Translations under genes and position numbers: made by a program | Notes under the pieces: generated by a model | What the model saw: the letters and a program-made list of their open reading frames with translations, nothing else | Told to the model about the DNA's origin: nothing | Databases searched by the model: none | NCBI GenBank assembly: GCA_003345595.1 | Contig: PRDI01000110.1 | Location: forward strand, 1-63,836 | Source: Candidatus Thorarchaeota archaeon | Lineage (GTDB): Archaea > Asgardarchaeota > Thorarchaeia > Thorarchaeales > Thorarchaeaceae | Direction: 5' to 3' | DNA length: 63,836 nt | Shown here: positions 21,660-37,889 of the stretch, piece after piece | How positions within the stretch are numbered: the first letter of the stretch is position 1 | Layout of the letters: every line of letters begins with the position of its first letter

Positions 21660-23096
21660 TCAGAACCAACCTCCGTTGGTCGGGCAGACGTTCTTAATCC
21701 TAATGTGCTGGACGGGCTTCTTAAGCGCCATCGCACCGTAGAGGATCATGAGGAACGGGTAAACTGCCGCGTTGACCGGGTAGAGGTCGAACTTCATGAG
21801 TGGGAGGAACTGGAACCACTCGATCGCGTCAAACGACGGATCCAAGGTAAGAAGGTAAACATCAGAGCAGCCAGGCAGATCCGCGTTGAGATCGCTGAGG
21901 GTCTGATAAACCTGACCAGAGTCAAGTGCATAAGCCACCTCGCTCATGAATTTGACCTCGGCCCCAGTAGTACCACCAACTTTGGACCGATAAATCTTCC
22001 ACGCAGTCGGGACGATGACACCAGGAGTCGCTTGGAAGGTAACCTTGTCCCCAGCTGCAACGCCGGTCACAAGAACCTCCGCTGAGGCAACTGAGTCACC
22101 ATACTTGTTGACACCAACGACCTTGTAGACGTAATCACCTGCGTCAGCTGAACCAAACTTCGATGATGCGTCCGCTCCATGAGCAACACCAGCAACGGTG
22201 GGCTGGCTGGGGCATTTCGTAGTAAGGGTTGAAGCGACAGGAATGCTCCCCTCCTGGATGAATACATCATCCAGAACCTCAGGATTACCAAAGGGAGTGG
22301 GGAAGTTGATGGGGAAGGTGGCCCCAGCTACTCCACCGACTGCTCCGGCGCCAGGAAGACCAAGTTGGCTGGGCGCTCCGACGGCAGGAAGAGGCACACG
22401 ATATTTGTCTCGAAGCATGTGCGAAATGTCTGTGGTCACTTTGATAGATGACAAGAGCAGATTGCCTTTACCATAACTGGCACGAATGGTGCCAAGGCCC
22501 TCAGTAATCTTATTCTCGAACGTCTCCCTATCGGCGTGACCACCTCGGAAGTCGATGACGTTCGTGGACGGAATCTGGACTTTCAGACCATCGGGCTGCT
22601 CAGAGATGAATGAAGAATTTCCATCAAAGAGGCCCTTCTCGACATTTCGGATGATCCAACGCGTACCGGCATCTTTTTCAATAGCCATTGCGTTCTCGGT
22701 CATCTCACTCATCGCAGCCTGGAGAGTGACCTGCCTATAGGTCTGCAAGTACTTCGCGACTGCAAACATACGAGCGATTGTTTGATCGGACGATTCAGAA
22801 GTGCCCCCCTCGGTTACCCATGCACCATCATCCTGACCAACTTCAGTACGCGTGTTCCACTGGCGTACGACCGATTTGACTGGGGTCTTCTTGAGCCTCT
22901 GGAAAAGCCTCGCCTCGTCCTGCGAAAACAGGATATTAACGAGAGTGAAATCCAAGGATTCTGGAGTGAGCGCACGCCCACCCGTAAACGCTGAGGCATC
23001 AACGCCAGTTCCGGCAGTCAAAGCCTTGCTCAGTAACTCCATAGTCTCAGAGTTACTCTGGGCGAAGCCGTTATAATTTCTCTCGAAGAGATCCAT
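21660..23096 (-). CDS. Major capsid protein (SPO1/Herelleviridae-like)
   Basis: LSKALTAG..GGRALTPESLD, EKGLFDGN..QPDGL, FLPLMKFDL..LYGAMAL..RIKNV. Confidence 0.92.
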   Translation of the reverse strand: MDLFERNYNGFAQSNSETMELLSKALTAGTGVDASAFTGGRALTPESLDFTLVNILFSQDEARLFQRLKKTPVKSVVRQWNTRTEVGQDDGAWVTEGGTSESSDQTIARMFAVAKYLQTYRQVTLQAAMSEMTENAMAIEKDAGTRWIIRNVEKGLFDGNSSFISEQPDGLKVQIPSTNVIDFRGGHADRETFENKITEGLGTIRASYGKGNLLLSSIKVTTDISHMLRDKYRVPLPAVGAPSQLGLPGAGAVGGVAGATFPINFPTPFGNPEVLDDVFIQEGSIPVASTLTTKCPSQPTVAGVAHGADASSKFGSADAGDYVYKVVGVNKYGDSVASAEVLVTGVAAGDKVTFQATPGVIVPTAWKIYRSKVGGTTGAEVKFMSEVAYALDSGQVYQTLSDLNADLPGCSDVYLLTLDPSFDAIEWFQFLPLMKFDLYPVNAAVYPFLMILYGAMALKKPVQHIRIKNVCPTNGGWF

Positions 23097-23113: not shown

Positions 23114-23902
23114 TTATACTTTCTTCGCGAAGAGCGGCTTCATGCTCTCCGGAATGCCACCACCAGATTGGAGGCGACTCTCGAGAATTGAGATGTCAGT
23201 CGTGGATATCTCGCCCTTACGACAGAGCTCTGTAGCCTTCGCCATGACTTCCATGACAGTCATCTCAGCACCACCTTCCTCTACCTGGAAGCGATCACCG
23301 CCCTTGCGCAAACGCGCCATAGATGGGATCTCAATGGAGCCGAACTTGGCGATATCAGTCTTGATGCTTTTCTGCATCTCGGCGTTCGCCAGGACAGCTT
23401 TCCCGATAGCTTTAACGATGCTTGAGAGCTCAGACACTGACTTCTCAAGCTTGGCCAAGCGATCGAGGGGTTTCCTCGCCTTCTCGAGACTCTCGCCGAT
23501 TTCGTGGGCGAGAGACTTGAGGTAGGGCTCGATGTCCATTGCGATCTCTGCCTCAGGATCATCTTCGGCCACTGCCTCCTCAAAAGACTTCTTGGCCGGG
23601 GGAGGTGTACTCTCAGACTCGCTCTCCTCAGTCGAGATTGACTCCTCTTCCTCCTGCTCGGCGCCCTCGCCCTTGTCAGATGCAGACATTGCCTTAGCCA
23701 AGATCGTTTGGGCCTTCTTGAGCTCGTCCGCGGTGGCGCCAGACTTGGCGAGGATGGCATTAGCCTCCTCGAGCTCCTTCTTGTCCACGGCGGGGGTGGC
23801 TCCGTCCCCGAGGGACTTCCTCAGATCCTCACACGCCTCGTTCCAGCTCTTTTCGAGAGTGGCCGCGTCGAGGTTCTGATCTTTATTCTCCTTGCCGTCC
23901 AT
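23114..23902 (-). CDS. Capsid scaffold protein
   Basis: Acidic coiled coil between protease and MCP, with many xxK-[SA] motifs. Confidence 0.75.
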   Translation of the reverse strand: MDGKENKDQNLDAATLEKSWNEACEDLRKSLGDGATPAVDKKELEEANAILAKSGATADELKKAQTILAKAMSASDKGEGAEQEEEESISTEESESESTPPPAKKSFEEAVAEDDPEAEIAMDIEPYLKSLAHEIGESLEKARKPLDRLAKLEKSVSELSSIVKAIGKAVLANAEMQKSIKTDIAKFGSIEIPSMARLRKGGDRFQVEEGGAEMTVMEVMAKATELCRKGEISTTDISILESRLQSGGGIPESMKPLFAKKV

Positions 23903-23915
23903 CTAAATACCTCCT

Positions 23916-24719
23916 CTAGGATTTCTTCGTGAGCTTTGCGAATATGAAGTTCATGACCTGGTCAGTCGAGACTCCCAACGGGACTGTCTCCGCGACCCAG
24001 GCACGAGTGTCTTGATAACTCCCCAGCGTACCCTCCTTTACTCCCTTGAGGAAGGCTTTGAATAGCTTTGTCATCTCCGGTTCGCCGAACTTGGCACCTT
24101 GGAGTGACTCGCCAATCAAGGCCCTGCCCCCCGAGAACGAACTCGCGTCTACGCCGCCTCCCGCAGTCAAACTCTTGGCAAAGGATGTGAAAGGGACAAG
24201 TTGAACATGTCCGAGTGTCGTATCATTGACAGGCTTGTGGGTGATGGCAGTGTCGTCCCAGATAACGCGGCGAATGAATTTCTGCGCGTTCTCAATCGCC
24301 TTCTTCAGGATATAACCCCCAATGGAAGCGCCGAAGCGGGAGGTCTTCGATAGAACATTCTCCATGACCCCCTGCGCTCGCTTGTTCTCTTTGTAGAGCA
24401 TCGCTTTCACCAAGGTTGACTTGGCTGAGGTGAAGGCTACGTCCAGAGGCTCGCCGATGATGTATGCTGGATCCTTCTGGAGCTTGTGCTGATGGTCCCA
24501 GGAGATCACTCCGTGTGTCATGTAGTAGTTGGCGGCGTCCTTCAACGCCTTCATGACCGTGATCTCTTCCTCCTGGTCCTGCTGCTCGTTCGACGCCTCG
24601 AGGTAGACGACCCATTTGGAGCCCTCTTCCTCCGCCTTGATCAGCGTCGCGGAAGCGAAGCCGGCGTAGAACGGGTTGTCAGATTCTATGTCAATTGGAA
24701 GATCTGGAAATCCTCTCAT
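23916..24719 (-). CDS. Prohead maturation protease
   Basis: ASNEQQDQEEE, ISWDH, IIGEP, GASIGG, AITHKPVN. Confidence 0.85.
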   Translation of the reverse strand: MRGFPDLPIDIESDNPFYAGFASATLIKAEEEGSKWVVYLEASNEQQDQEEEITVMKALKDAANYYMTHGVISWDHQHKLQKDPAYIIGEPLDVAFTSAKSTLVKAMLYKENKRAQGVMENVLSKTSRFGASIGGYILKKAIENAQKFIRRVIWDDTAITHKPVNDTTLGHVQLVPFTSFAKSLTAGGGVDASSFSGGRALIGESLQGAKFGEPEMTKLFKAFLKGVKEGTLGSYQDTRAWVAETVPLGVSTDQVMNFIFAKLTKKS

Positions 24720-24871: not shown

Positions 24872-25051
24872 TTAGAACCGATTGATTTTACCACACCGTC
24901 GACACTTCACTTCAATACCCATAGGCTGCTCCGACTTCAGGAGTGGTATCTTTGCTTTGAACAACAAGGCTGAGCAGTCCCTACACCGGATATGCTCGAC
25001 GTAATCCGAGTGGACGACGAGCTTGACCCTCACCTTCTTAGCCTCTCCCAT
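24872..25051 (-). CDS. Com-family zinc-ribbon regulator (59 aa, not in ORF track)
   Basis: MGEAKK...IRCRDCSALLFKAK...IEVKCRRCGKINRF matches the Mu Com pattern; GGGGAG RBS. Confidence 0.75.
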   Translation of the reverse strand: MGEAKKVRVKLVVHSDYVEHIRCRDCSALLFKAKIPLLKSEQPMGIEVKCRRCGKINRF

Positions 25052-25061
25052 GGACTCCCCT

Positions 25062-25307
25062 TTACCACAAATCTTCTGAACTGAGGCAGCTCTTCAGGAT
25101 CTCGGTCTGGCCGGCCTCAAAGGCGAGGACAGCAGCGTCGTATCGATCGACGAACCGCCCCTCGGAAGTGAGAAAGCCCTGCTCGGACTGGCGGACTGGC
25201 ATGCCCAAACCTTCGTTAAACATCTGCTCGATGATCTTATTATGTCTCTCGCCGGTCCAGACCTTTTCCCCTCTCTTGCAAGCCGCGGAGACGATCTTCT
25301 CGTTCAC
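25062..25307 (-). CDS. Hypothetical phage protein
   Basis: GERH..QGFLTSEGRFVDR..LSSEDLW. Confidence 0.65.
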   Translation of the reverse strand: MNEKIVSAACKRGEKVWTGERHNKIIEQMFNEGLGMPVRQSEQGFLTSEGRFVDRYDAAVLAFEAGQTEILKSCLSSEDLW

Positions 25308-26680
25308 GACGTCACTTCCTTAGCTTTCTTCCCCAGCTCCTTCAACGCCCTTGCCCGCTCATCTTTGAAGAGCGGTGTTTTGTAGTAGTCTTCCCTCTCA
25401 GTCAGGTGATCCTTAGCAATGTACTTCGCGGCGTCGAAGTTGTTTGTGTGCTCGCCCTCGATCCAGATCCCAATAGCCAACTCAGTCTGGTTGAAGTCCG
25501 AGTCGGGCCGCTTCGATCCTTTCCCAGTGAAGATGTCAGCCAACTTTATCATTATCTTCTCCTCTGGCTCCTTGACCGACTTCCCTAAACCAAGGAGTTC
25601 TTTCATCTCCGGGTAGTACCGAGTCCACGAGCACCGGCAATGAGGGTGAAGCGGCGTGCACGCCCAGAGGTTGGAACCCTTCCTCCCGATGTTGTTCTTA
25701 CCTATCCAAATAACATCATACTCTTCGCCATCAATCTTCATCGTCCCGCTCGGCGTAGGCTCATCGGAGAGAACTACGACCTGCTTATTGATGAGCCGCA
25801 TGCAGTCAGAACAAGCACCAGGGGCAGAGATGCCGATCATGTAGACCGTCTCCCCTTCCTTCCTGTCCCCTGTCTCTTCCATAAGAATCCCAGCGTTGAC
25901 ATTGGTCGCAATTTCAGTCTCGGCTATCATCCTCCAATCGCGGTTTAGGTCAGCAAACTCGTCGAATAGTGCGACCTCGAGCTGCCTAGTAGTCTGCTTG
26001 TTCTTAATCGCATTCAAGATAGTCGTCGAGATCTTCTTCCGTGCCGACGCCTCCAAGTCGACCATCTGCTCCGCAGCATGCTGGCGGCCGAAGGTGTAGG
26101 CGTTCTGCCACATGTCGTCCTTTGGTAGTTGGAGTGCAGTGGGGATCTGATCCAGGGAGGAAGTCATCCTCGACTCGTAATCCATACCCTGCAAGATCTT
26201 GCCGAGGAGCATAGCCTTGCGGACCAAGACGTCAGGCTGGTCCTTGAAAATCCGAGCCATTGACTGGTCCAAGGTCTTCACCACCTCGTCCCACTGTTTC
26301 TGCGTCAGTGGCTTCCCTGTCTTCGGACTGATAAAGATCCTACCGTTCAGCTTGAAAAGCTGATCTGCCGGCACTGCTTTGTGAAACTCACCCGTCTGGT
26401 GAAGCCACTGACGCCGAATAGTGAGGAAAAGGGCGAGGAGTCGGTCGGAGACGACAGTAGTTGCCTGCTCCTCGAACTGCTGGTGAGCCTTCCAGGGACT
26501 TGTCTCCTGGTGAGTATGTGGTACGCGCGTCGGTGCAACAGCTTTTCGGGGTGCCAACTTGTGAGCACGAGCCTTCTCCAATCTGCTCGCCGAGACATAG
26601 AGTGCTACCTTGGTCACGACTCCTCCGTATCCTTCGACTTGATCGGGATGGTCAGGCGAATAGATTTCATCACCTTCCAT
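25304..26680 (-). CDS. MuF/SPP1 gp7-like minor head protein with C-terminal DUF5661-like domain
   Basis: NRDWRMIAETE, ACSDC, PLHPHCRCSW; C-terminal ELAIGIWIEGEHT..IAKDHLTEREDYY. Confidence 0.8.
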   Translation of the reverse strand: MEGDEIYSPDHPDQVEGYGGVVTKVALYVSASRLEKARAHKLAPRKAVAPTRVPHTHQETSPWKAHQQFEEQATTVVSDRLLALFLTIRRQWLHQTGEFHKAVPADQLFKLNGRIFISPKTGKPLTQKQWDEVVKTLDQSMARIFKDQPDVLVRKAMLLGKILQGMDYESRMTSSLDQIPTALQLPKDDMWQNAYTFGRQHAAEQMVDLEASARKKISTTILNAIKNKQTTRQLEVALFDEFADLNRDWRMIAETEIATNVNAGILMEETGDRKEGETVYMIGISAPGACSDCMRLINKQVVVLSDEPTPSGTMKIDGEEYDVIWIGKNNIGRKGSNLWACTPLHPHCRCSWTRYYPEMKELLGLGKSVKEPEEKIMIKLADIFTGKGSKRPDSDFNQTELAIGIWIEGEHTNNFDAAKYIAKDHLTEREDYYKTPLFKDERARALKELGKKAKEVTS

Positions 26681-27240
26681 CCCTTCTCGGTCTTCATGTA
26701 CCTCTTGCCGTTCTGGACCTTGACCGAGCCCATCGGTGTACTCGCCTTCCGTGCCTTCTTCGGCCCACCAAAGCCGAAGCCCTTCCGCCTAAACCCTTTC
26801 TCAAGCTCCTCGAGGATCTCATCCACACTATAAATACTCTTAGCAAAGGTTAGGGCGGAGGCCGGGACGCGGAAGACGTTTCCTGCCTCGTTCACTACGC
26901 GCACAAAGTCTTCGCCGATCTCTTTGATCGTTCCCACCACTCCTCGACCCAAACTCCTCAGATGAGAACTTTTAATCTGGACCTTCTGCCCTACCTTCAG
27001 CGGGGCCTTGCCGACGTCCTTGTGTTCCTTGACTTTCTCCTCGAACGCCTCAGCTTTCTTCGGATCGTTCGTAATTTTCATCTCATCCATATAATAATAG
27101 CCGTCAGACTTCTTGGTCAACTTGAATGAGTCAATTTGTTCCTGGGTGTAGAAATACTTAGACCCTACTTTCTTGATGTACTTGTGGTTTGCTCGCTCGG
27201 CTTTTTTCAAGACTTCCCAAACGATCTTACTCATACTCAA
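26614..27240 (-). CDS. Putative internal head protein (basic, SH3/KOW-like core)
   Basis: LKKA..HKYIKKVGSKYFY, LKVGQKVQI, and C-terminal KASTPMGSVK..GKRYMKTEKGW. Confidence 0.6.
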   Translation of the reverse strand: MSMSKIVWEVLKKAERANHKYIKKVGSKYFYTQEQIDSFKLTKKSDGYYYMDEMKITNDPKKAEAFEEKVKEHKDVGKAPLKVGQKVQIKSSHLRSLGRGVVGTIKEIGEDFVRVVNEAGNVFRVPASALTFAKSIYSVDEILEELEKGFRRKGFGFGGPKKARKASTPMGSVKVQNGKRYMKTEKGWKVMKSIRLTIPIKSKDTEES

Positions 27241-27244
27241 TCTC

Positions 27245-27349
27245 CTAAATGATTAAGGTGACCAAAACAAGTACACCTAGAACAGTAAAGAGGTAGACCC
27301 AGATCTCCTTGAAGGCTAGACAAAGTTGACTAACTACCTTCTTCTTCAT
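27245..27349 (-). CDS. 34-aa single-TM peptide
   Basis: MKKKVVSQLCLAFKEIWVYLFTVLGVLVLVTLII; ATGA overlap with the upstream gene. Confidence 0.45.
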   Translation of the reverse strand: MKKKVVSQLCLAFKEIWVYLFTVLGVLVLVTLII

Positions 27350-27534
27350 CTCTCATTCCCCCACAAGATCGGAAACATCTTCGCGATTTCCTGCTGCTCC
27401 TCGTAGGAGATGATGTTTCTGCTAAGCATATACTTCAGCAGGTGAACAATTGCATTCTCGAGAGGTGTGTGCTTCGAGTCGTCCCAGTTGTCTACGATGG
27501 GTTTTTGCTCCGTCCCACCTACTGTTAAAGCCAT
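27346..27534 (-). CDS. Hypothetical protein
   Basis: Tightly packed ORF with RBS. Confidence 0.55.
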   Translation of the reverse strand: MALTVGGTEQKPIVDNWDDSKHTPLENAIVHLLKYMLSRNIISYEEQQEIAKMFPILWGNER

Positions 27535-27537
27535 GCT

Positions 27538-27873
27538 TTATTTCCCTTCATATTCTTCGACTGCACGTTTCACTATATCAAGTGCCATCTTCTTCTTTTC
27601 TTTCTCAGTCCTATTTGTTTTGGCTGCGGCTTCTTGCGCCATAGACAATGTCTTTTTCCAGTCGAATCCATTCTTTTCCCCATCGGCTAGAATTGCCTTG
27701 ACAGCATCCTTTATTGGGTCATTATCACTGTCTGCATTATCTAAGAAAGACAATGTCTTGTCCTTTCCACCTTCTTTATATATATACACCCACTCCCCAT
27801 TTGGACCACGGTAACGACGAAGGTACTTCGATTTCATCAACATCTGAATCTGCGATGGCCTCAGGCGCTCCAT
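27538..27873 (-). CDS. Putative internal head protein
   Basis: LMKSKYLRRYRGPNGEWVYIY module shared with neighbours. Confidence 0.6.
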   Translation of the reverse strand: MERLRPSQIQMLMKSKYLRRYRGPNGEWVYIYKEGGKDKTLSFLDNADSDNDPIKDAVKAILADGEKNGFDWKKTLSMAQEAAAKTNRTEKEKKKMALDIVKRAVEEYEGK

Positions 27874-27874
27874 C

Positions 27875-29758
27875 TCACTCTCCCTTCGGCTTCTCCATGA
27901 AACCCTTATCCAACTCCACGTAGGGTGGGAGAGCTTTCTCCGCCACCAGGTACTCCCACCTTCTAGCGAAGATCACTCTGCCTTTCGAGGCTATTCCATA
28001 TTTGACCATCTGGACAAGGATCTCCCTCTTCTTCTCCTGGCTGAACAAGCGGACGATATCGTCCATGAGGGCGAGTGTCTGGTGCTCGTTCAGATACCAA
28101 TGAGGCCGGGAGCGATAGCCCTCGAACAGACCATACTCCGCCTTCTCCGGGAAGCTTAGATCGTTGTCGATGGCCCAGAACTTGCCGCTGTCATCCACCA
28201 GCCAGTTGCGGCGGTGGCGATCGGTAGCACAGATCAACCAGTCTAAAACGGCGAGCTTCTGCCACTCGCGGACGTAGACATCTTTGTACTCCAGGCCTGA
28301 CGCTTTCCACGTGTCGGCATAGACCATGCTCATCGCGGAGCCGATCTTCCCATCAACTCGCCTGACTACGACTGGGGGCACGTTCTGCAAGCCCAGGATC
28401 TCCGACACTAGGTACGCAAGTCGTTCCCGCTTCCACTCCGTACCGGCTGGGATGTTGCCCTTCCTAACATCGCGGTCCTGCTTAGTCTTCCACGCTGCCT
28501 CGACGATCGTTCCTGTCGGGCTGAGCAGGATGAGCTTCTGTGTCTTCCCGCTCTTCGCGCCTGGCATGTCCTGAACCTTGACCACTGCTCCCTTGTATAA
28601 ATCCTCCTCGCCTAGCGAGTAGTAGACAGTGGGTTTTGCTAGTACCAGGCGAGCTGTTACGTCAAGAGTGGCTTTAATCAAGATCCCCTGCTTCTTCTCC
28701 TCAGGTCCGGGCTCAGTGGTCTTCTGCTTGGCGAATGCCTTCTCAAGGAGTGGCTTCAGCTTGACAAATTCTGAGGGTGAGAAGTCCGTCCTGTACGGAG
28801 CTTGTACCATGCGAATTGCAGGCTTCTCACCCGAGTTCTTGACGTGATAATAGACATACTCCGCGCCCAAGCGAGCAATCATCTCCCCGACGTCGCTGTA
28901 GTAAGTCTTGCCTCGCTTGATGTCCAGCGCGACGAACTTCTGGTAGCTCTTCGTGGCTTTCAGCGCGTTGATGAGCGCGAGCTGGGCTTCCATACGCTCC
29001 TTGTAGTCCTCTGCTCCGCCAGTGGCATCGAGATGATGGAAGTACTCGTGCACGAAGCTGTCCTTGTACTTCGGACTCAACTCGATGCGGTGCTCATTCT
29101 CTTGGTAGTATGCCTTGCAGAGGCCCCCGTTCAAGCGAAGGTTCCCGTCCTTGTCAAGTGCGTCTTTCTCGAAACCGATTGTGAGCAGCCTCTTGTTGAT
29201 GAAACCTAGGTCGTGGAGGGTGTCGAGCTGGTAGAAGATTGAGTGCCAAGCAGCTTTGTTCTCCTTGGTAATCTTGTCCTCGATTGATACTTTGAACTTG
29301 TCACTAGCATAATTGTACATCTGCTCGACAGACATCTTCTCATAGGTACTCATCCTGGGGAACGCGATCCCCTTCTCCTCCGCACCCTGGGCCCAGTTCT
29401 CCTCAACCCACTTGCGGTACTCGGGATTATTCACGCCCCCGTTAGCCTGCCACTCCTTCCTCAGGTCAGGAGGGATCGGGTGAGCTTTCACCTTGGCAGG
29501 ATCGACTGCGATGTTCGTCGATGCCTTGGATGTCGAGGGCTTCTGGGGTTGTTGCTGTCCGCCACCGGCCTTGGGCTCGGCGTGGATGATTGGAAGCCCG
29601 TTCTTCCTAGCTTCTTCCTCCGCTGCCTTCGCCTTGGCTGATCCCATCTTACCCACGTACTCCCAGCCCTTGGTCCCGCCAACCTTCCTGAAGGTCTCAC
29701 CGTTCGCGTAGTGGCGAATAGCCCCCGTGGGCATGGCCCGAGCCTTCAGCAAGACCAT
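27875..29758 (-). CDS. Polyvalent head protein: N-terminal targeting module, zincin/LPD1-like metallopeptidase, HipA/PI3-4-kinase-like domain
   Basis: FVHEYFHHLD...EMIARL; AAWK, RERLAY, VPPVV, LDWLICATDRHRRNWL, AIDNDLSFP. Confidence 0.75.
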   Translation of the reverse strand: MVLLKARAMPTGAIRHYANGETFRKVGGTKGWEYVGKMGSAKAKAAEEEARKNGLPIIHAEPKAGGGQQQPQKPSTSKASTNIAVDPAKVKAHPIPPDLRKEWQANGGVNNPEYRKWVEENWAQGAEEKGIAFPRMSTYEKMSVEQMYNYASDKFKVSIEDKITKENKAAWHSIFYQLDTLHDLGFINKRLLTIGFEKDALDKDGNLRLNGGLCKAYYQENEHRIELSPKYKDSFVHEYFHHLDATGGAEDYKERMEAQLALINALKATKSYQKFVALDIKRGKTYYSDVGEMIARLGAEYVYYHVKNSGEKPAIRMVQAPYRTDFSPSEFVKLKPLLEKAFAKQKTTEPGPEEKKQGILIKATLDVTARLVLAKPTVYYSLGEEDLYKGAVVKVQDMPGAKSGKTQKLILLSPTGTIVEAAWKTKQDRDVRKGNIPAGTEWKRERLAYLVSEILGLQNVPPVVVRRVDGKIGSAMSMVYADTWKASGLEYKDVYVREWQKLAVLDWLICATDRHRRNWLVDDSGKFWAIDNDLSFPEKAEYGLFEGYRSRPHWYLNEHQTLALMDDIVRLFSQEKKREILVQMVKYGIASKGRVIFARRWEYLVAEKALPPYVELDKGFMEKPKGE

Positions 29759-29760
29759 GA

Positions 29761-30012
29761 TTACTTGACCTCCACTTCCTCGGCGAAGAAACGACTGCCA
29801 TGATAATTGTAAGGTAACGCCTCAAGCCAATCGATACCATTCTCTGGTGTCTTAGCCTTGTTATCGAGACCTATGATTTCATCTGTCTTAAGCCGTGTCT
29901 TAAGCCCAGATTTCGATGTGACAATAACGACCTTCCCGTCGACCAGCTTAGCCGTCCCTACGATCTTGACCGTTCCGTCATCCTGGACGGACTTGAATTG
30001 TATCATTCTCAT
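29761..30012 (-). CDS. Small protein between the two kinases (possible immunity/partner)
   Basis: ATGA overlap with the upstream kinase; TPENGIDWLEALPYNYHGSRFFA. Confidence 0.6.
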   Translation of the reverse strand: MRMIQFKSVQDDGTVKIVGTAKLVDGKVVIVTSKSGLKTRLKTDEIIGLDNKAKTPENGIDWLEALPYNYHGSRFFAEEVEVK

Positions 30013-31961
30013 CTTACTCTCTCCAATGACGCCCAGTTAGGCGTCTCACGATTCAGGACCATAAATCCCTCCACCTCGTTATACTCAGGGAAGGCTCCAT
30101 GTTTTACTAGGTAATCCCATCTCTTCTCGAACAACTCAACAGCCTTCCCTCCGAGGTTGAACATCTGTATCGCTCCGATGATCCGCTTCTTCTTCTCCGG
30201 GGTTAGCAAGCCCTTGAGCTCGTCCGGCAGTTCGAGGCCGTGGCGTCTTTGGAGGATCTGGTGAGGTATGCACCTATATCCGTTCCACTCCCCAAAATTG
30301 ACTTTTTCGGGGAAGGCTAAGCCGTTGTCGATCGCATACACCTTTCCGGCGTTGTCAATCATCCAGTTCATGCCATGGCGATCAGTGTTGCAGATGAGCC
30401 AGTCCAGAAGGACTAGCTTCTGGTACTCAAGCGTGGGTACCTTATTCTGCATCGCCTCACTAGCCTCAGCCCAGACCTTGCCGTCGACGAAGTCCATCAT
30501 GGCACCTGGCTTGCCATCGACTTCTTTGACAACAACCGTGGGCACAACGCCAATATTTACAATCTGGTCGACTATATAGGTTAGGCGCTCCCTCTTCCAC
30601 TGCTCGCCAAGTGGGATATTCCCCTCTCTGAGGTCCATCTCACATTCGCCTTCGATGGGCTTGAAAATGGCCTTGGCCTCCTTGCCTTCCGGGGACTTGA
30701 TGTCCAGGACCCGGACGACGTTGACATGCCCATTGCTTACGTTCTTCTTCCCGACCACGTCTGACTGGGCAAGCGCGATCTCCTGCGGGGACTTCGGAGT
30801 GTCCCTATCGATGATCTCCTTGAGGAGCTTCTTGGCCGCGATGCTCTTCTCCTCGGCTTCTGCCTTGGCCTCGGCCTGGCGCTTGGCCTTGACAGGATCC
30901 TTCCGGATGGCTTCCATCATCCCCACCAGGGCCCTGGGGCCAGCTTTCATCCACTCTTTAACATTCTTGCGGTCGTCAGCATTCTTCGGGTCGAAAGGCC
31001 GCTCATCCCCCTTGACCTTTCGAGCCTCCTCCAACATATTCTCGACGAACAGCTTCCGGTTGGCAACGACCTGCTCGCCGTAGTCCATCTTGTCCCAGCT
31101 CTTAGGGACATTCCCCCTCTTGGCCCTCCCTACACTGGCCTCGTGCTTCTCCTTGACAGGATCCTTCCGGACGGCTTCCATTATGTTCACCAGAGCTGTG
31201 GAGCCGGCGTTCATCCATAGCTTAACATTCTTGTGGTCCTCGGCGTTCTTCGGATCGAAGGGCTTCCCACCCCACTTAGCTCTCCGGGCTTCCATCATCT
31301 GCTCGACGAACAGCTTCCGATTGGCGACGATCTGTTCGCCGTAGTCCATCTTGTCCCATCCTTCAGGGATGGCTTCTCTCTCAGCCTTCGCAGCACTAGC
31401 CTCTGCCCTAGCCTTGGCTTCCGCCTTGGCCTCATCTTTAACCTCGCGCTTCTGCTTGGCCTCATTCACGAGCACTGGCTTGACTTTCGGCTCAGGTGCT
31501 ACCAAACCGTGCTCGGCGGCCACTTTAACCATCATTGCCAGGTCCCAGCGAGACATCTTGCCCTTAATGTCTGCCGAGCCGAACATCGGGTGAGGGTTCT
31601 TGACGTTGATAGCGTGGGCGACGGCGGCTTTGAACGCTCCTGGATCTTCCTTGGCCCACTTCTCTAGGTGAACCTTAGCCCCAAGGTTTATCCTCGGCTT
31701 CTTGACAGCCCCACCAGCAACTACATTAGCCTTCTGTCCTCCACCCTGCGCTGAGGGCATGACTACCGGTAAACCTTTCGTCTTGGCCTCATCCACGACC
31801 TGCTTGGCCTTGGCCCCGCCCTGCTTACCGACATACTCCCATCCCTTCGCTCCTCCTACTTTGCGGAACCACTCGCCGTTTTTGTACATACGAACAGCCC
31901 CCATCGGGAGGCCTTTGGCTTTGACGAGATCAGCGTACTGGGACGGCTTGACGAACTTCAC
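30009..31961 (-). CDS. Head protein: N-terminal targeting module, two ~75-aa repeats, HipA/PI3-4-kinase-like domain
   Basis: AIFKP, RERLTY, VVPTVV, LDWLICNTDRHGMNWM, AIDNGLAFP. Confidence 0.78.
   Translation of the reverse strand: MKFVKPSQYADLVKAKGLPMGAVRMYKNGEWFRKVGGAKGWEYVGKQGGAKAKQVVDEAKTKGLPVVMPSAQGGGQKANVVAGGAVKKPRINLGAKVHLEKWAKEDPGAFKAAVAHAINVKNPHPMFGSADIKGKMSRWDLAMMVKVAAEHGLVAPEPKVKPVLVNEAKQKREVKDEAKAEAKARAEASAAKAEREAIPEGWDKMDYGEQIVANRKLFVEQMMEARRAKWGGKPFDPKNAEDHKNVKLWMNAGSTALVNIMEAVRKDPVKEKHEASVGRAKRGNVPKSWDKMDYGEQVVANRKLFVENMLEEARKVKGDERPFDPKNADDRKNVKEWMKAGPRALVGMMEAIRKDPVKAKRQAEAKAEAEEKSIAAKKLLKEIIDRDTPKSPQEIALAQSDVVGKKNVSNGHVNVVRVLDIKSPEGKEAKAIFKPIEGECEMDLREGNIPLGEQWKRERLTYIVDQIVNIGVVPTVVVKEVDGKPGAMMDFVDGKVWAEASEAMQNKVPTLEYQKLVLLDWLICNTDRHGMNWMIDNAGKVYAIDNGLAFPEKVNFGEWNGYRCIPHQILQRRHGLELPDELKGLLTPEKKKRIIGAIQMFNLGGKAVELFEKRWDYLVKHGAFPEYNEVEGFMVLNRETPNWASLERVR
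30887..31370 (-). repeat. Intragenic tandem duplication (WDKMDYGEQxVANRKLFVE...PFDPKNA...RKDPVK)
   Basis: Two copies at about 31151-31370 and 30887-31110. Confidence 0.9.
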
Positions 31962-31973
31962 GATCTTCTGCTC

Positions 31974-33029
31974 TTACTTGCCTTTCTTGCTGGTCCAGGC
32001 GTGGACACGGTAACCGTAGCCGTGGTGAGGGATGTAGTCCTCCTCGGTACTGACATGTGCCTCAGGATACTTCTCGTGGAGCTGCTTGACAACAGCATCC
32101 ACTTCCTCCCACGAGAGCGGACGGGTCTGCGAACCAACCGTCTTAAGGATGGTCGAGCCTTTGGGAATGGTGTACCCTAGCGACTGCTTCGTCTCGTCAG
32201 GATTCCCTTGGTAGTGCTCGTGCTTGACGTACTTTTCGTACTTCGAGACCCTGCCTCCACCGCCACCTTTGCCATCCGCGTAGGTATACTTGTAATGACC
32301 TGGCCCACCCTCCCTCTTAATATACCGAGCTTTCTGAAGATCCTCGAATGCCATGTACTCGTGATCGAGTTTCCCGATCATCCCCGCCTTGTAGAGTGGG
32401 CGAAGGAACTTGCGGTCTGGCTCGGACTTCTGGAGGTCCATTGTGATCCTGATTAGACCGCTGATAGCCTCCTGGATCTTCCACGTCGTGTCGTCGTCCA
32501 TAGTCTTCAAGCCCTTCAGCTTGTCCAGAGCTGCGAAGACTATCGTCTTGATCTCTCCGTCAGGCATGACAGCCAGGCTTGTCTTAAGCATCTCGATCTT
32601 GGCCGCCACTTCGTCGTCAGTGAGCATAACAGCCATGTTCTTCAGCGTGTACAAGGCACTGTTGACTACCGAGGCGTAGCAGATCTTCTTCGGCGTGATA
32701 ACCGTGGCTAGCGCCTCACCTCCTTTAATCAACTCGACGAGCTCCCCGGCATTCATCTTGGACTTGAGGAACGCTAGGTCAGAAGGCTCCATGGCCTTCT
32801 TGTACGAGATGCCAGCCTCAGAGGCAGCGATAGCTAAGGCCTGCTGCCTGTCTTTAACGATCTCGCCCGAACCAGAATGGAGCGTGCCGGCTTTGAACTC
32901 CCTCATGACTTTCTCGAACTTCGCGTCCTTGGCCTTCTTGGTCTTGGGCTTTGCCGGGCCCCCTGTGGCTGCCTTATTCAGTTTCATCGGGATCATCTCA
33001 TCTTCCTCCTTCTCGGTGTTCTTCCCCAA
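31974..33029 (-). CDS. Putative internal head protein with DUF6496-like domain
   Basis: KVMREFKAGTLHSGSG..RQQALAIAASEAG; LQKARYIKREGGPGHYKYTY. Confidence 0.65.
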   Translation of the reverse strand: MGKNTEKEEDEMIPMKLNKAATGGPAKPKTKKAKDAKFEKVMREFKAGTLHSGSGEIVKDRQQALAIAASEAGISYKKAMEPSDLAFLKSKMNAGELVELIKGGEALATVITPKKICYASVVNSALYTLKNMAVMLTDDEVAAKIEMLKTSLAVMPDGEIKTIVFAALDKLKGLKTMDDDTTWKIQEAISGLIRITMDLQKSEPDRKFLRPLYKAGMIGKLDHEYMAFEDLQKARYIKREGGPGHYKYTYADGKGGGGGRVSKYEKYVKHEHYQGNPDETKQSLGYTIPKGSTILKTVGSQTRPLSWEEVDAVVKQLHEKYPEAHVSTEEDYIPHHGYGYRVHAWTSKKGK

Positions 33030-33066
33030 CCAACTTCTAATACAAGGTGATTTCTTTTCAACCTTG

Positions 33067-33237
33067 TTACATATCGAAATCTGGGTCAGTCTCAGACGTC
33101 TCTACATCAGTATGTACACGTGACTTGAACAGAGGTGTACAATCACTTACGGGTTTCTGGTCGCTCTTGATTAGATCTTTAAGTGCGCCTAGTGGTGCAG
33201 TGAAGTCCTCCCTAGTCTCTTCTACTGGTTCAAGCAT
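33067..33237 (-). CDS. 56-aa acidic peptide with LIKS and LFKS motifs (not in ORF track)
   Basis: AGGAG RBS; MLEPVEETREDFTAPLGALKDLIKSDQKPVSDCTPLFKS... Confidence 0.45.
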   Translation of the reverse strand: MLEPVEETREDFTAPLGALKDLIKSDQKPVSDCTPLFKSRVHTDVETSETDPDFDM

Positions 33238-33333: not shown

Positions 33334-34926
33334 TCATCGGATGATCTCTCTCTCTCGCGTACGTCCAGCAAACTTCTTACGCCATGTACTCCAATCGTCG
33401 GACTGCGACTTGGCTACTTCTTCTTCCTGCTCGGCTTGACCCTCTTCACCTTCAGGACTTTCCTCTTCTTCCTGCTCGACACCACCTTCGCTGCTTCCAG
33501 ACTCCTGCTCACCGAACATCTCATTACCAAACATGTTTTGCTGGGCTTCCTGCGCTTCTTTCTGTGCCGCAGCATTCTTCTCAGACATAACCATCTGCAC
33601 GACCAGGGGGTTAAGGATAATGTTCGCCCAATCTTCCTTCCGCTCCTCCTTACCCTCTTTCTTGAGGATGTCGTTAATCGTTAGATCAGTTTGAAGACGA
33701 GCTTGCATGATCTGCGTTAACTTCATCTGATCTTTTACTTCCTGACCAGAAAAAGCAAAACGATATTTCTTGCCCCAACACGTTTTGCGCATGATCTTGT
33801 TCATGTGCTGAGAGATAAACATGAGGAGGCTATCTAGACCACGATCTTTCGATGCCTCAATCCTCGGCCCAATCTCATTAGCCCCAATAACAGACGTACT
33901 ATCCTCGGCTTTGATCCCTAACTCAGCCATGTCAATGGCAAAAACGGCGCAGATAATCGAACTTAGAAACATCATCCCCCGATGATACTCCATCTCCTTG
34001 TTACTCGTACCAATCGCCTTGAAATCGAGGCCAACTCCATCCTTACCCGATGGAAGAATTGGCAATGCCCACTGACCCCCAGCACCTGACATTGCCGAAT
34101 ACCAATACTGCTGAATAGCCGTAACTCCTTTTGAGTCGATGTCTCCCATCACAGAAATAAATCCACGAGGTATCTTGTCCCTGACAAACTGATCGCGGAG
34201 ATGATTGTAACCGAAGAGCAAAGTGGTAATGAGATCGATTGCCATTTCTGCGTCGGAGTAGCCATATCCCCGGAACCTGATGTCTACTCGCTTGTTTTTG
34301 TAATCGAATATCAAGTTGTTGTCATTAAACTCCTCAATCAACTTGTCGTCAATCACCTGGACAAATCTAATATCCTTCTTCGGATAGTCCTCCGACGTCC
34401 TTTTCAACGTAGCCCCATCTAACAAACGAAAGGCAGCAACATCGCCGCCTAGATTATACTGTAGTTCAGTCCCAATCTGGTCAATCGTTCCTATCTCGCG
34501 GACGAGCATCTGCAAGTAGTCACTAAAATCATCTTCTCTTTCGGACGAGTAAACAACCCCAGTCTGCTCGATAAACTCCCTAATCTGCTTTACTTCCTCA
34601 TCATCCACATTCTCGTCAACAATAGGAACAACCCGAAAGCCCTTCTCCCCATCTTTAACCCTATCTTCTGACACGTAGACAGAGAAAGGAAGAACTTGAT
34701 TTATCCGGGTCTTTACAATGGCATTTAACAGAGGAACGCGGTCTACAACGTTCCTGACCACAGCATAGTCAACTTTAAGCAAACGTTCGCGAATACCCCG
34801 CATTCCTCCCCTAAGCATCCAATTAACTACAGAGGGGTCAAGGATGTCACTTTCTAATTTCTTTAACTTGGCTTCGACATCAACGAGTTCTCGATGTTGT
34901 TTTTTTGCGTGTGAATTTTTTCTCAT
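33334..34926 (-). CDS. Portal protein
   Basis: AIVKTRINQV, LDGATL, GYGYSDAE, SNKEMEY, ICAVFAIDMAELG, ASKDRGL, TINDI. Confidence 0.9.
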   Translation of the reverse strand: MRKNSHAKKQHRELVDVEAKLKKLESDILDPSVVNWMLRGGMRGIRERLLKVDYAVVRNVVDRVPLLNAIVKTRINQVLPFSVYVSEDRVKDGEKGFRVVPIVDENVDDEEVKQIREFIEQTGVVYSSEREDDFSDYLQMLVREIGTIDQIGTELQYNLGGDVAAFRLLDGATLKRTSEDYPKKDIRFVQVIDDKLIEEFNDNNLIFDYKNKRVDIRFRGYGYSDAEMAIDLITTLLFGYNHLRDQFVRDKIPRGFISVMGDIDSKGVTAIQQYWYSAMSGAGGQWALPILPSGKDGVGLDFKAIGTSNKEMEYHRGMMFLSSIICAVFAIDMAELGIKAEDSTSVIGANEIGPRIEASKDRGLDSLLMFISQHMNKIMRKTCWGKKYRFAFSGQEVKDQMKLTQIMQARLQTDLTINDILKKEGKEERKEDWANIILNPLVVQMVMSEKNAAAQKEAQEAQQNMFGNEMFGEQESGSSEGGVEQEEEESPEGEEGQAEQEEEVAKSQSDDWSTWRKKFAGRTREREIIR

Positions 34927-36098: not shown

Positions 36099-37889
36099 CT
36101 ACAACTTTCTCAAAGAGTCCAAAAATTGCTCAGGTGACTGCTGGGCCAGAGTGTTCAACTCAGCCTGAGACATTGCTTGCCCCCCACCTATCGGTGTCAC
36201 AATCGCCTGCTGCGTGGGAGCTGCACCTTGCGCTGCCACCTGCGCGTAATAATCCAAGACTGATTCACTGGGGAGGAGTCTGCTTGCCTGGTTGCAATAC
36301 GTCTCAGCGAGCATAAAGTGGTCCGGCGAGTTCTCCTCCCACGAATAGTAGGACTTCTCAGGGTTGTTCTCGTTCACAACCAGGACACGCGTTGAAGCCT
36401 GCATCTGCGACCAGTATCGACCCCCAACTAAGACCTCCGATCCTTCTGGGTTCATCAAAGCATGCGCCTCGATCGCTGCTTTCAAGCTGTCGATAGCTGC
36501 CGTCCGGTCCTCATTCAGGACTCTGTCTTCTCGATTGATGCGAAACTCAAGCAGGGCGTGCTGGAAACGGGAGGAGAAAATATTCTTGAACTCCCCCTTC
36601 AAAGAAGCGATGTTGTGAATCTCGGGGTCAGCGTCGATAACGCATACTCGAGGATTCCACTCCCTAATCATGTCCTTGAGCAAGGTGAAGCTGGGAAGCT
36701 CCGTAGCCAAGACCAGACGACGGTTCAAAATCCCATGCTCATCTCTGATCCTCTCGCGTATCACCACGGTCAGCACATCGCCGACGTCCACGCCCATGAA
36801 CAACGGCCCGTGAACGGTGGTTCGATCAACTGGATATTGGTAAGGGATCTGGATGCCAGTGAGTAGACCGGAGGAGAACTTCGCACCTTCCGACGTGTAA
36901 GGAAGACCTAGGCGGGAATTGTAAAAGAACTCCTTCTTCAAAGGGTTCAGGAAGGACTCATCCCACACAGTAACAAGTTCTCGCATCGTCACCGTCGGGC
37001 TGACCGTCGGGGCGACGATCCGTCCTACCCACTCCCGCCCTGGATACTCCTCAACATACTCCCCCTTAGAAAAGCGATTGACTGGTCGGTTGCACTTCGG
37101 GCAAATCACTCGGGGCTCGTCAAACTCCCCGCACTTCTCGTCTCGGGGGATCCACTTCCTCTCCTCTACCTGCTTCATCACTGCCTCGAAGAAGCCGGGA
37201 AAGAAGCGATAATTGCAACCTTCACACTTGATCATCCAGTAGCCTTTCGTGCTCGTCTGGATCCGCCCATCAATACCCCTCCCCTCGATAGTTGGCGTCG
37301 AAATCTCCCGATGGAACTTATGTGGGCTGGCGGAATAGCGGTCTGGCAAAAGCAGAAGATTTCGCTGATTGCATCTATCTTTCTCGTCAACGAAGGCTGA
37401 GTCCACTGGAACCTCAACAAACTCATCTTCCACGTTAGAGCCGACATACAAGAGTTGCCCCTTACCAAACTGCTTCAGAGCAACTCGACTGGTTCCGGCT
37501 GCATCACTCATCATCCTTCCATAAGCTGGAACCCTGCGAATAACTGTATCCACGCGCGAGTTGACAAATCGATCTCGGCCTTTGTACTTCGGCAAGACGT
37601 ACATGACGATATATCCGAGTTCTGCTGCTTCGTAGAACGAGCCGACGATAAACAACTCAGATAAGCCATGCTGGACAGGTTTCATCACTGCTAACTTATG
37701 AAACTTGAGGAAATCGCGATACAAAGAAGCTAAATACCATCGATCTTTGAAAGACATCCGATCACCGCGAATGTTTCTATGATAATTTGTTGCCCAGTAC
37801 AATATTGGAGCTTTATCTTTCAAAAGCTCTTTCAAATCCACATCTTTCAAAGTAATTTGCTCAGCTAAATGTTGTACTTCATCCGGCAT
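36099..37889 (-). CDS. Terminase large subunit (gpA-like)
   Basis: MKPVQHGLSE (Walker A variant), FVDEKDR, ISTPT, CEGC/CPKC, MGVDVG, PDHF. Confidence 0.9.
   Translation of the reverse strand: MPDEVQHLAEQITLKDVDLKELLKDKAPILYWATNYHRNIRGDRMSFKDRWYLASLYRDFLKFHKLAVMKPVQHGLSELFIVGSFYEAAELGYIVMYVLPKYKGRDRFVNSRVDTVIRRVPAYGRMMSDAAGTSRVALKQFGKGQLLYVGSNVEDEFVEVPVDSAFVDEKDRCNQRNLLLLPDRYSASPHKFHREISTPTIEGRGIDGRIQTSTKGYWMIKCEGCNYRFFPGFFEAVMKQVEERKWIPRDEKCGEFDEPRVICPKCNRPVNRFSKGEYVEEYPGREWVGRIVAPTVSPTVTMRELVTVWDESFLNPLKKEFFYNSRLGLPYTSEGAKFSSGLLTGIQIPYQYPVDRTTVHGPLFMGVDVGDVLTVVIRERIRDEHGILNRRLVLATELPSFTLLKDMIREWNPRVCVIDADPEIHNIASLKGEFKNIFSSRFQHALLEFRINREDRVLNEDRTAAIDSLKAAIEAHALMNPEGSEVLVGGRYWSQMQASTRVLVVNENNPEKSYYSWEENSPDHFMLAETYCNQASRLLPSESVLDYYAQVAAQGAAPTQQAIVTPIGGGQAMSQAELNTLAQQSPEQFLDSLRKL

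Follow-up and report, generated by a model that had tools for sequence, protein, structure and literature searches.

Why should a tailed phage keep two large kinases among its head genes? The question is raised by contig PRDI01000110.1 (GenBank assembly GCA_003345595.1, Candidatus Thorarchaeota archaeon), in which a cassette of about 8 kb separates the portal gene from the prohead protease gene and encodes two proteins with kinase domains, further called kinase 1 and kinase 2, together with a MuF-like protein and several basic proteins. The window analyzed here is the entire contig of 63,836 nt (63.8 kb), phage-like in all its parts, its source being a 2.7-Mb metagenome bin. The original prediction, made from the nucleotide sequence alone, had described this interval as a set of capsid-loaded effectors, and the cassette with both kinases and the basic proteins is indeed found at positions 25304-33237 of the minus strand. 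Our analysis makes it fairly likely that the 8-kb insert serves a tailed phage as a cassette of variable cargo, a "disaggregated polyvalent protein", and that its kinases are probably effectors carried in the capsid.

Kinase domains of the cassette

Both kinases are recognized by the Pfam profile PI3_PI4_kinase (PF00454), scoring 39.8 bits (kinase 1) and 39.4 bits (kinase 2) with a cutoff of 27.1, and the same profile is found at or above its gathering score in 26 of 27 large relatives. The two kinase domains are 44% identical over 217 aa, and that of kinase 2 is 47-50% identical to the stand-alone kinases of 266-277 aa from three related loci (L004, L007, L008). The motifs K, RE, DRHxxN and IDN, by which two proteins of ~630-650 aa had been recognized as atypical kinases, are intact in both of them (650 and 627 aa), and they are invariant or nearly so in 111 diverse family members. 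In particular, R63, D133, N138 and D151 are invariant in this set, and at least 90% of its members keep K40, E45, E64, R134, H135, I150 and G153 (residue numbers here and below refer to the kinase domain of kinase 1, aa 395-650). The motifs of the phage kinases align to FKPK, NTDRGNDN and IDNGLAFP of PI4KIIbeta, a type II phosphatidylinositol (PI) 4-kinase.

The AF2 model of the kinase 1 domain has pLDDT of 94.3 and pTM of 0.92. Its best match in the VIA-align comparison is PI4KIIalpha (Z 20.8, rmsd 3.1 A, 234 of 256 residues), other Z values being 13.7 for CtkA, 13.5 for Fam20, 11.3 for CotH, 10.9 for HipT and 10.6 for HipA. Foldseek gives human type II PI 4-kinases (E 1e-11, TM 0.54-0.65), all top 12 matches belonging to PI4KII, and the profile search of PDB sequences yields PI4KII (E 1.5e-17), Fam20C (6e-11) and Vps34 (1e-6). 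Judged by their motifs and by the modelled fold, kinases 1 and 2 belong to the atypical kinases of the PI3/4K-Fam20-HipA superfamily, with type II PI 4-kinases as their nearest relatives, and are catalytically intact. In the earlier label "HipA/PI3-4-kinase-like", HipA is thus too distant a reference and not the nearest relative (Z of ~10.7).

Two family assignments were rejected. Neither window kinase matches HipA at E<=0.01, and in three homologs HipA_2 scores 20-24 bits, under its cutoff of 27. Kinase-PolyVal, described as the core of an STY kinase that lacks the C-terminal subdomain and has an insert between the catalytic His and Asp (PMC5512222), was ruled out, as no such Pfam match was obtained, the model contains a helical C-lobe, and 15 residues lie between DRH and IDN.

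The kinase family is large, uncharacterised and mostly viral. An exhaustive profile search with the kinase domain returned 8,598 cluster representatives with E<=1e-3, of which 130 reach E<=1e-30, and the domain is mostly C-terminal, in proteins ranging from 124 to 5,177 aa. The architecture of kinase 1 (an N-terminal module, a variable number of PEGWDKxxY repeats and a C-terminal kinase) is shared by only eight relatives in a word-indexed search. The NCBIfam scan gave only a far-sub-threshold match to the SCO1664 family, and in reference prokaryotic genomes only two distant relatives were found, one in Amycolatopsis and one in a metagenome-assembled genome of Sansalvadorimonas. Among GenBank phages, tblastn found no relatives with the kinase domain of kinase 1 or with that of a MuF-fused family member, and only distant haloviral and Mx1 genes with that of a portal-fused member.

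The ~85-aa repeat PEGWDK.xY...FDPKN, which lies between tag and kinase, is present in about one to four copies among orthologs P0006-P0012 (by a rough pattern count), and the two copies in kinase 1 are ~70% identical by eye. The giant proteins P0015 (3,184 aa), P0041 (3,027 aa), P0034 (2,892 aa) and P0117 (5,177 aa) contain two to six kinase-like stretches each; in P0015, four PI3_PI4_kinase stretches are combined with DUF4347.

Association of the kinases with head genes

Synteny, position in distant phages and gene fusions all mark the kinase as a head-associated protein, as far as can be judged from genomic context. The order portal, kinase, an open reading frame (ORF) of 82-84 aa, MuF, Com, protease, scaffold and major capsid protein (MCP) is kept in L004, L005 and a third contig. 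In other phages the kinase ORF is located immediately after portals of four Pfam families, namely Portal_Mu (L011, L022), SPP1_portal (L014), Phage_portal_3 (L025-27) and Phage_portal (L024), and in L028 it follows the large terminase gene (TerL).

Fusions observed among the 27 large family members comprise four with portal domains (best E 7e-96), three with Phage_Mu_F, one with an XkdF prohead protease, one with DUF5661 and four with InPase, a domain of polyvalent proteins. Examples are P0085 (Portal_Mu and kinase), P0081 (Phage_portal and kinase), P0148 (MuF and kinase) and P0153 (2'-5' ligase, protease and kinase). The window kinases themselves carry neither a MuF nor a portal fusion. Moreover, toxin-type modules, WXG100 in one member and Gln_amidase, are fused to kinases of this family. 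Fusion to MuF or portal is the published argument for the capsid packaging of effector domains (PMC5512222).

The cassette genes diverge faster than their neighbors. Between the window and L005/L004, the portal, MCP, protease and MuF proteins are 66-80% identical, as opposed to 31-43% for kinase 1, 35-45% for the product of the 83-aa gene following it, and ~44% for a basic 351-aa protein. The content of the interval also varies among relatives, which have one or two kinases in long or short forms, and MuF either alone or fused to an ADP-ribosyltransferase (ART). Such fast divergence combined with variable content is the pattern that would be expected of genes in conflict with hosts.

In L004, a close relative, the MuF ortholog (L004:7668-10220) has 850 aa and joins MuF and DUF5661 to ADPrib_exo_Tox (28.2 bits, cutoff 23.4), so that relatives exchange the enzyme that MuF carries. 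Another variable element is a DUF5662 protein encoded after the portal in L004:1584-2051 and L008:5678-6385 and absent from the window.

Portable N-terminal tags and the middle domain of kinase 2

The N-terminal modules of the two kinases, originally called near-identical, are similar rather than near-identical: the peptides by which they had been noticed are present, and the identity is 59% over 68 aa. The middle regions are unrelated in the pairwise comparison, as had been stated. The module is not confined to kinases. A hidden Markov model (HMM) of it matches the 901-aa MuF homolog of L008 (E 7e-20), the kinase of the same locus being a bare 277-aa protein, and in L010 the module is found on four consecutive proteins, an S-AdoMet lyase, a 612-aa body of unknown function, the kinase and a 1,008-aa ART-PolyVal protein. 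When longer proteins were searched with a profile, further matches were unknowns of 612-615 aa and, at borderline E, a GNAT acetyltransferase and an SNF2 helicase. Furthermore, aa 3-310 of kinase 2 (the tag and the domain with the motif HEYFH) are 30% identical to the N-terminal half of the L008 MuF (E 1e-36), with HEYFHHLD kept, so the same module is carried by a kinase in one phage and by MuF in another. The modular system proposed earlier is borne out by these occurrences on MuF, S-AdoMet lyase and other proteins; by these alignments, the shared N-terminal segment is a mobile mini-domain, and truly modular.

In L010:1-12801, from a related IMG/VR phage, the genes encode in order an SNF2 helicase, the S-AdoMet lyase, the 612-aa unknown, the kinase, a 93-aa partner, ART-PolyVal, a 177-aa protein and MuF. 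This would be a whole polyvalent-protein repertoire laid out as separate tagged genes, and it includes a candidate for a capsid-delivered anti-restriction S-AdoMet (SAM) lyase.

The AF2 model of the module (kinase 2 aa 1-62; pLDDT 80) consists of three strands, a helix and a strand. Fold searches gave no usable structural match (best E 0.05 in BFVD, best Z 3.5 PDB-wide), and a word-indexed search with the kinase 2 module returned only kinase 2 itself. A second tag, KAKY[IT][KR]REG.PGHYKY.Y, is common to the 351-aa protein, to the 111-aa protein of the cassette (as a variant), and to MuF variants and their neighbors in L004, L007 and L008.

Kinase 2 combines a tag, a HExxH domain and a kinase; kinase 1 has only repeats and a kinase behind its module. 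The HExxH domain resembles LPD1 and IrrE-like zincins in Atlas language-model features (0.89) and in structure (TM 0.57-0.60 to LPD1 clusters), the Pfam LPD1 match being sub-threshold (E 0.035), and we treat its LPD1/IrrE-like identity as a lead.

A cut-site-like motif in proteins of the head module

The cassette proteins have a short motif in common with the scaffold and the protease. The pattern L.K[AS] occurs 28 times in proteins of the head module, where 4.3 occurrences are expected from per-protein shuffles (~7-fold, z 11.4), and nine times in the other genes of the contig, where 10.8 are expected. The enrichment is reproduced in L004, L005, L007, L008 and L010 (z 3.7-11.2), in no case outside the head interval. 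Fifteen permuted or substituted motifs were used as controls; only L..K[AS] is weakly enriched (z 3.6), the rest having |z|<2, which rules out helices rich in Leu, Lys and Ala as the cause of the excess.

The occurrences are distributed unevenly, with seven in the scaffold, four each in the protease, the 351-aa protein and kinase 2, two in MuF, and one each in kinase 1 and MCP (at aa 22); the motif is absent from the portal and the 83-aa protein. In kinase 2 it is located at aa 3, 213, 338 and 360, and the linker that joins the zincin-like domain to the kinase contains the latter two sites. Both types of tag are directly preceded by L-x-K-[A/S], and the single site of kinase 1 is the one that precedes its tag. 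Scaffold, protease and the capsid protein N-terminus are classical substrates of prohead proteases. The simplest reading of the pattern is that L-x-K-[A/S] is the recognition site of the prohead protease and that the cassette proteins are also its substrates, with putative cleavage at these sites; being such substrates, the cassette proteins would be located inside the procapsid.

The N-terminus of MCP (aa 22-112) has a similar counterpart in the C-terminal ~80 aa of the protease (aa 180-261), with 38% identity and E 1e-8. Both similar segments begin right after [LF]xK[AS], as LTAGGGVDAS after FAKS in the protease and LTAGTGVDAS after LSKA in MCP. The protease may enter the procapsid by mimicry of the MCP N-arm.

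A small partner of kinase 1

The 83-aa gene downstream of kinase 1 had been missed earlier. Its homologs directly follow the kinase in seven other loci (L004, L005, L006, L007, L010, L011, L013), and the motif LP.NY.G[ST] is shared by all of these, including the divergent L010, L011 and L013; the family search matched no known family. Binding of its product to kinase 1 is supported by the predicted complex, for which the median ipSAE is 0.87, with 0.00 for the best control. Among solved complexes 58 of 80 attain this mark, and among mismatched pairs two of 110, the calibration being only rough, since own alignments were used. The pLDDT of the partner is at least 77, and the contact agreement between runs at least 0%.

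In the modelled interface, the conserved residues 65-79 of the partner face the glycine-rich loop, K40, the hinge, residues 135-138 and I150-D151 of the kinase. This geometry is that predicted for an inhibitor or a pseudosubstrate in the kinase cleft. As the partner is modelled in the active site, the kinase would be held off in the producing cell, which suggests that it is harmful there and is kept off until exit. The predicted mechanism accordingly changes from that of the original prediction to one with a kinase held inactive in the cell that makes it.

The 111-aa gene was considered as a similarly conserved partner of kinase 2, and this is unsupported, its homologs not adjoining the short kinases in L004 and L007.

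Proposed mechanism and alternative explanations

The idea of capsid-delivered effectors is partly supported, in that its computationally testable parts (catalytic motifs, position of the cassette, fusions, modularity and the L-x-K-[A/S] link) all come out in its favor. Behind the cargo cassette reading stand the observed anatomy of the locus, the fold and catalytic residues of the kinases, synteny, fusions, modularity of the tags, motif statistics and divergence, together with the model-based complex of kinase and plug. In outline, the kinases would be synthesized late, along with the head proteins, and the translationally coupled 83-aa partner would keep kinase 1 inactive, with its conserved C-terminal motif in the nucleotide/catalytic cleft. 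The cargo (the kinases, MuF, and the 351-, 111- and 208-aa proteins) would go into the procapsid, where the prohead protease would trim it at L-x-K↓[A/S], sites of which the scaffold and the protease have many and which directly precede the short tags. The basic mature proteins would move with the DNA into the next host, and there the plug-free kinases would phosphorylate a host target early, a lipid being a less likely target than a protein. We infer the packaging, the cleavage, the ejection, and the target with its protein (rather than lipid) nature.

A more general version of this mechanism, which we put forward tentatively and hold to be less probable than its opposite, is a portable loading code. 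A leader ending in L-x-K↓[A/S] and followed by one of two tags rich in Tyr, Gly and Lys could be placed ahead of any enzyme (PI4K-like kinase, SAM lyase, ADP-ribosyltransferase, zincin, MuF) and would provide for its loading into the procapsid and its release by the protease, dangerous cargo being guarded by an active-site plug lost on ejection.

Several explanations compete with the cargo cassette. The kinases might be unpackaged late proteins acting in the producing cell, where they would phosphorylate phage structural proteins or host factors for head assembly (compare CotH of spore coats and Fam20C of secreted proteins). The genes do lie within the late head operon, CotH and Fam20 are structural neighbors with Z of 11-13.5, and the related gene of Hafunaviridae is found among head- and tail-completion genes; still, we consider this explanation unlikely. 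An assembly factor should be as conserved as its substrates, whereas the kinases vary in number and type and diverge about twice as fast as the structural genes. The toxin-type fusions (WXG100, Gln_amidase, ART neighbors) and the predicted plug suit an effector better, and the tags and L.K[AS] sites in common with MuF suggest the procapsid interior. The plug could be accommodated otherwise, if the kinase and its 83-aa partner were a toxin-immunity pair of the MuF polymorphic-toxin type, serving competition with non-immune neighbors or superinfecting phages rather than host takeover. Temperate phages are known to carry MuF toxins followed by immunity genes (PMC5576092, PMC3482391), and such a pair would fit both the WXG100 domain of one family member and the small conserved gene after the kinase, whose product is predicted to block the active site. 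We nevertheless regard it as very improbable, since the contig resembles a complete genome of a virulent-type phage, with no integrase noticed, though no search was aimed at one, and since the kinase is not fused to MuF in the window. The partner is devoid of tags and L.K[AS] sites, which suits an inhibitor in the producing cell, yet does not discriminate between the two uses; delivery would still be via the capsid, hence the overlap with the cargo cassette reading.

The question of the substrate is separate, as the enzymes could phosphorylate a lipid or a small molecule (a membrane lipid, a sugar, a nucleotide signal) and not proteins. Type II PI 4-kinases are the nearest solved structures by a wide margin, the same structural neighborhood includes the xylose kinase Fam20B and the lipid kinase MavQ, and haloviral relatives are annotated in GenBank as "phosphatidylinositol kinase". 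On the other hand, to our knowledge most bacteria have no phosphatidylinositol, and, by alignment, the phage kinases lack the insert that PI4KIIbeta has between the catalytic loop and the IDNG loop. Many of the structural neighbors are protein kinases (CtkA, CotH, actin-fragmin kinase, HipA/HipT), and the modelled partner puts a peptide with an invariant Ser/Thr into the cleft. Given these observations, a lipid or small-molecule kinase seems to us a poor bet, while the protein substrate assumed for the cargo cassette is itself a guess, since the nearest solved structures are those of lipid kinases.

Other observations also weigh against the cargo cassette reading. L.K[AS] is only a sequence motif and could be a part of the tag fold instead, and the N-terminal module could bind DNA or another partner instead of addressing cargo to the capsid. 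In L023 and L029, which are distant, the kinase loci do not adjoin head genes, so that the family is not exclusively head-linked. One of the three complex runs gave ipSAE of 0.00 and no interface, and a plug partner is predicted for kinase 1 only. The MuF assignment is below the Pfam threshold, and megablast of the cassette found no close relatives among GenBank phages, which leaves the system without a cultured close relative.

Proteins entering with the DNA act ahead of phage gene expression, and this makes them prime candidates for disarming host defences. If the portable loading code exists, the injected effectors of phages would include a major class so far unstudied, that of the PI4K-like kinases, which comprises more than 8,000 sequence clusters. 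The testable handles are the candidate prohead-protease motif, the two portable tags, which could be used for loading foreign proteins into capsids, and the small predicted kinase inhibitor. If confirmed, these elements would help to annotate the portal-to-protease "dark matter" of many phages and would provide tools to study the contents of capsids besides DNA and, in laboratory phages, to engineer them.

Gene content of the contig

All long ORFs of the contig are on the minus strand, and the features of the head region are listed in Table 1. No tRNAs were found in the contig by a tRNA search, and a search for a terminal direct repeat was also negative. In positions 1-125, the initial 20 bases reappear 102 bases on, hinting that this end of the contig has a short tandem repeat.

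Table 1. Features of the head region, from terminase to major capsid protein.
Positions	Strand	Feature	Basis and remarks
36099-37889	-	TerL (large terminase)	phrog_675
33334-34926	-	Portal, 530 aa; upstream border of the cassette	phrog_12 (E 2.5e-27) and Phage_portal match
33067-33237	-	Acidic ORF, 56 aa, pI 4.2	ORF call; two L.K[AS] sites
31974-33029	-	Basic protein P0004, 351 aa; N-terminal DUF6496, internal KARYIKREGGPGHYKYTY tag, four L.K[AS] sites	DUF6496 28.6 bits, cutoff 24
30009-31961	-	Kinase 1, 650 aa; an LVKA site in the leader and the N-terminal mini-domain are followed by two PEGWDKxxY repeats of ~85 aa and, at the C-terminus, the PI4KII-like kinase	
31752-31928	-	N-terminal module of kinase 1, aa 12-70	Alignments; local HMM E 3e-31
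30012-30779	-	Kinase domain of kinase 1, aa 395-650	AF2 model, structure comparison, Foldseek
29761-30012	-	Partner of kinase 1, 83 aa, motif LP.NY.G[ST]	Start overlaps kinase 1 stop; predicted active-site plug
27875-29758	-	Kinase 2, 627 aa; an LLKA site and the N-terminal mini-domain are followed by an LPD1/zincin-like domain that contains HEYFH and by the PI4KII-like kinase	
29573-29758	-	N-terminal module of kinase 2, aa 1-62	HMM E 3e-30; AF2 model
28682-29440	-	Middle domain of kinase 2, aa ~107-359, LPD1-like or IrrE-like; HEYFHHLD at aa 236-243	
27878-28606	-	Kinase domain of kinase 2, aa 385-627	Similarity to kinase 1 domain
27538-27873	-	Basic protein, 111 aa; N-terminal tag, LMKS directly followed by KYLRRYRGPNGEWVYIY	Homologs in L006, L010
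27346-27534	-	ORF, 62 aa	Matches part of a 157-aa ORF in L008
26614-27240	-	Strongly basic protein, 208 aa, pI 9.9; tag-like segments at each end	Homologs in L005, L008
25304-26680	-	MuF-like head protein, 458 aa; C-terminal DUF5661-like segment	Phage_Mu_F sub-threshold
25062-25307	-	ORF, 81 aa	Conserved in L005, where Pfam gives T4_Y16D
24872-25051	-	Com-like zinc-ribbon protein, 59 aa	Zn_ribbon_Com E 5e-4, sub-threshold
23916-24719	-	Prohead protease, 267 aa; downstream border of the cassette	phrog_1028 E 1.8e-20; four L.K[AS] sites
23114-23902	-	Acidic scaffold-like protein, 262 aa, pI 4.7; seven L.K[AS] sites	Position and pI fit a scaffold (putative role)
21660-23096	-	Major capsid protein (MCP), 478 aa; one L.K[AS] site at aa 22-25 (LSKA, followed by LTAG)	phrog_752 E 4.8e-60

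Portals of L004, L005 and L008 share 66-76% identity with that of the window, and the 351-aa protein is kept immediately after the portal in L004, L005, L006 and L008. Homologs of the 56-aa ORF were sought in the related loci and none was found; its reality as a gene is uncertain. The several basic proteins announced earlier are indeed there, as the 351-, 111- and 208-aa proteins and both kinases have pI of 9.1-9.9. The 208-aa protein shows a weak match to the N-module HMM at aa 162-192.

The MuF protein of the original prediction can be kept with a reservation. It scores 18.8 bits with Pfam Phage_Mu_F, below the cutoff of 29.6, yet the match spans positions 1-110 of the 112 in the profile, and the same region scores 21.5 bits in the L004 homolog and 18.0 bits in that of L010; no match to NCBIfam was obtained. 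L004, L005, L007, L008 and L010 have homologs, with an ADP-ribosyltransferase attached in L004 and the N-module in L008. At its 3' end, the 208-aa ORF runs 67 nt into the annotated MuF gene (26614-26680), so that one of these two gene limits is probably misplaced; an ATG further downstream may be the start of MuF. The Com-like gene is kept between MuF and the protease in L004, L005, L007 and L010, and it has two L.K[AS] sites although its product is presumably a regulator.

Comparison with known systems

Capsid delivery as such is a known strategy, used by Alt and the internal proteins of T4, by MuF-fused toxins and by polyvalent proteins (PMC5512222, PMC3482391, PMC5576092). Apparently undescribed in the literature that we searched are this kinase family as cargo, the plug partner, the two portable tags and the L-x-K-[A/S] motif; a search for PI3_PI4_kinase or PI 4-kinase in phages found nothing relevant, and no account of a PI4K type II-like kinase was found in the three papers just cited. 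As in polyvalent, MuF-fused and portal-fused effector systems, the cassette adjoins the portal and terminase genes, its relatives carry the classic set of ART-PolyVal, SNF2 helicase, InPase, LPD1-like and MuF domains, and the kinase is fused to MuF or portal in some of them; the small partner gene downstream of the kinase recalls the MuF toxin-immunity pairs. The differences are that here the cargo is split into separate genes with common short tags and does not form one giant polypeptide, that the kinase is of the PI4K type II-like kind and not the C-lobe-less STY kinase of polyvalent proteins, and that L-x-K-[A/S] ties the cargo to the scaffold and the protease.

The internal proteins and Alt of T4 have a capsid targeting sequence and are cleaved by the prohead protease gp21, and ejection proteins are also known in phiKZ and SPN3US. 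The T4-type precedent for late head-internal proteins ejected with the DNA is mentioned as well in the introduction of Iyer 2017 (PMC5512222). What is proposed here has the same elements: late head-internal proteins, an N-terminal address, trimming by the protease at a consensus also found in the scaffold, and ejection with the DNA. There is, however, no sequence relation, and the motif is L-x-K↓[A/S] here and L/I-x-E in the T4 type. The putative cut would be made before a folded mini-domain of ~55 aa that stays on the mature protein, and the cargo is a kinase with a predicted plug, known so far from its sequence.

Type II PI 4-kinases (PI4KIIalpha/beta; PDB 4pla, 4hnd, 4wtv) share with the phage kinases the FKPK lysine, the RE..AY helix, the DRxxxN loop and the IDNGLAFP loop. 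The phage kinases are only 22-23% identical to them, are shorter by ~100 residues, lack the insert before the IDNG loop, and are viral and C-terminal in modular proteins; their substrate is probably not phosphatidylinositol. HipA and HipT, toxin kinases whose antitoxins are HipB and HipS, belong to the same kinase superfamily (Z 10.6-10.9), and HipS neutralises HipT by occupying its active site, an action that the predicted 83-aa plug resembles. The cassette differs in having no helix-turn-helix antitoxin and no chromosomal toxin-antitoxin context, no HipA_C match is found in the window proteins, and the 83-aa partner matches no detectable family.

Distant members of the same family in cultured viruses are gp16 of Hafunaviridae, annotated as "phosphatidylinositol kinase" (HCTV-6, HSTV-2, HRTV-7), and a "kinase" of Myxococcus phage Mx1, with 29-31% identity to the portal-fused member. 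The gp16 gene is located in the structural operon, between head-completion and tail-completion genes and not after the portal (HCTV-6 10650-12122, L040), and the Mx1 gene (28851-30710, L041) follows a giant gene for a 1,479-aa "NUDIX hydrolase". As these viruses are cultured, gp16 of HCTV-6 and HSTV-2 and the Mx1 kinase are possible experimental entry points to the family.

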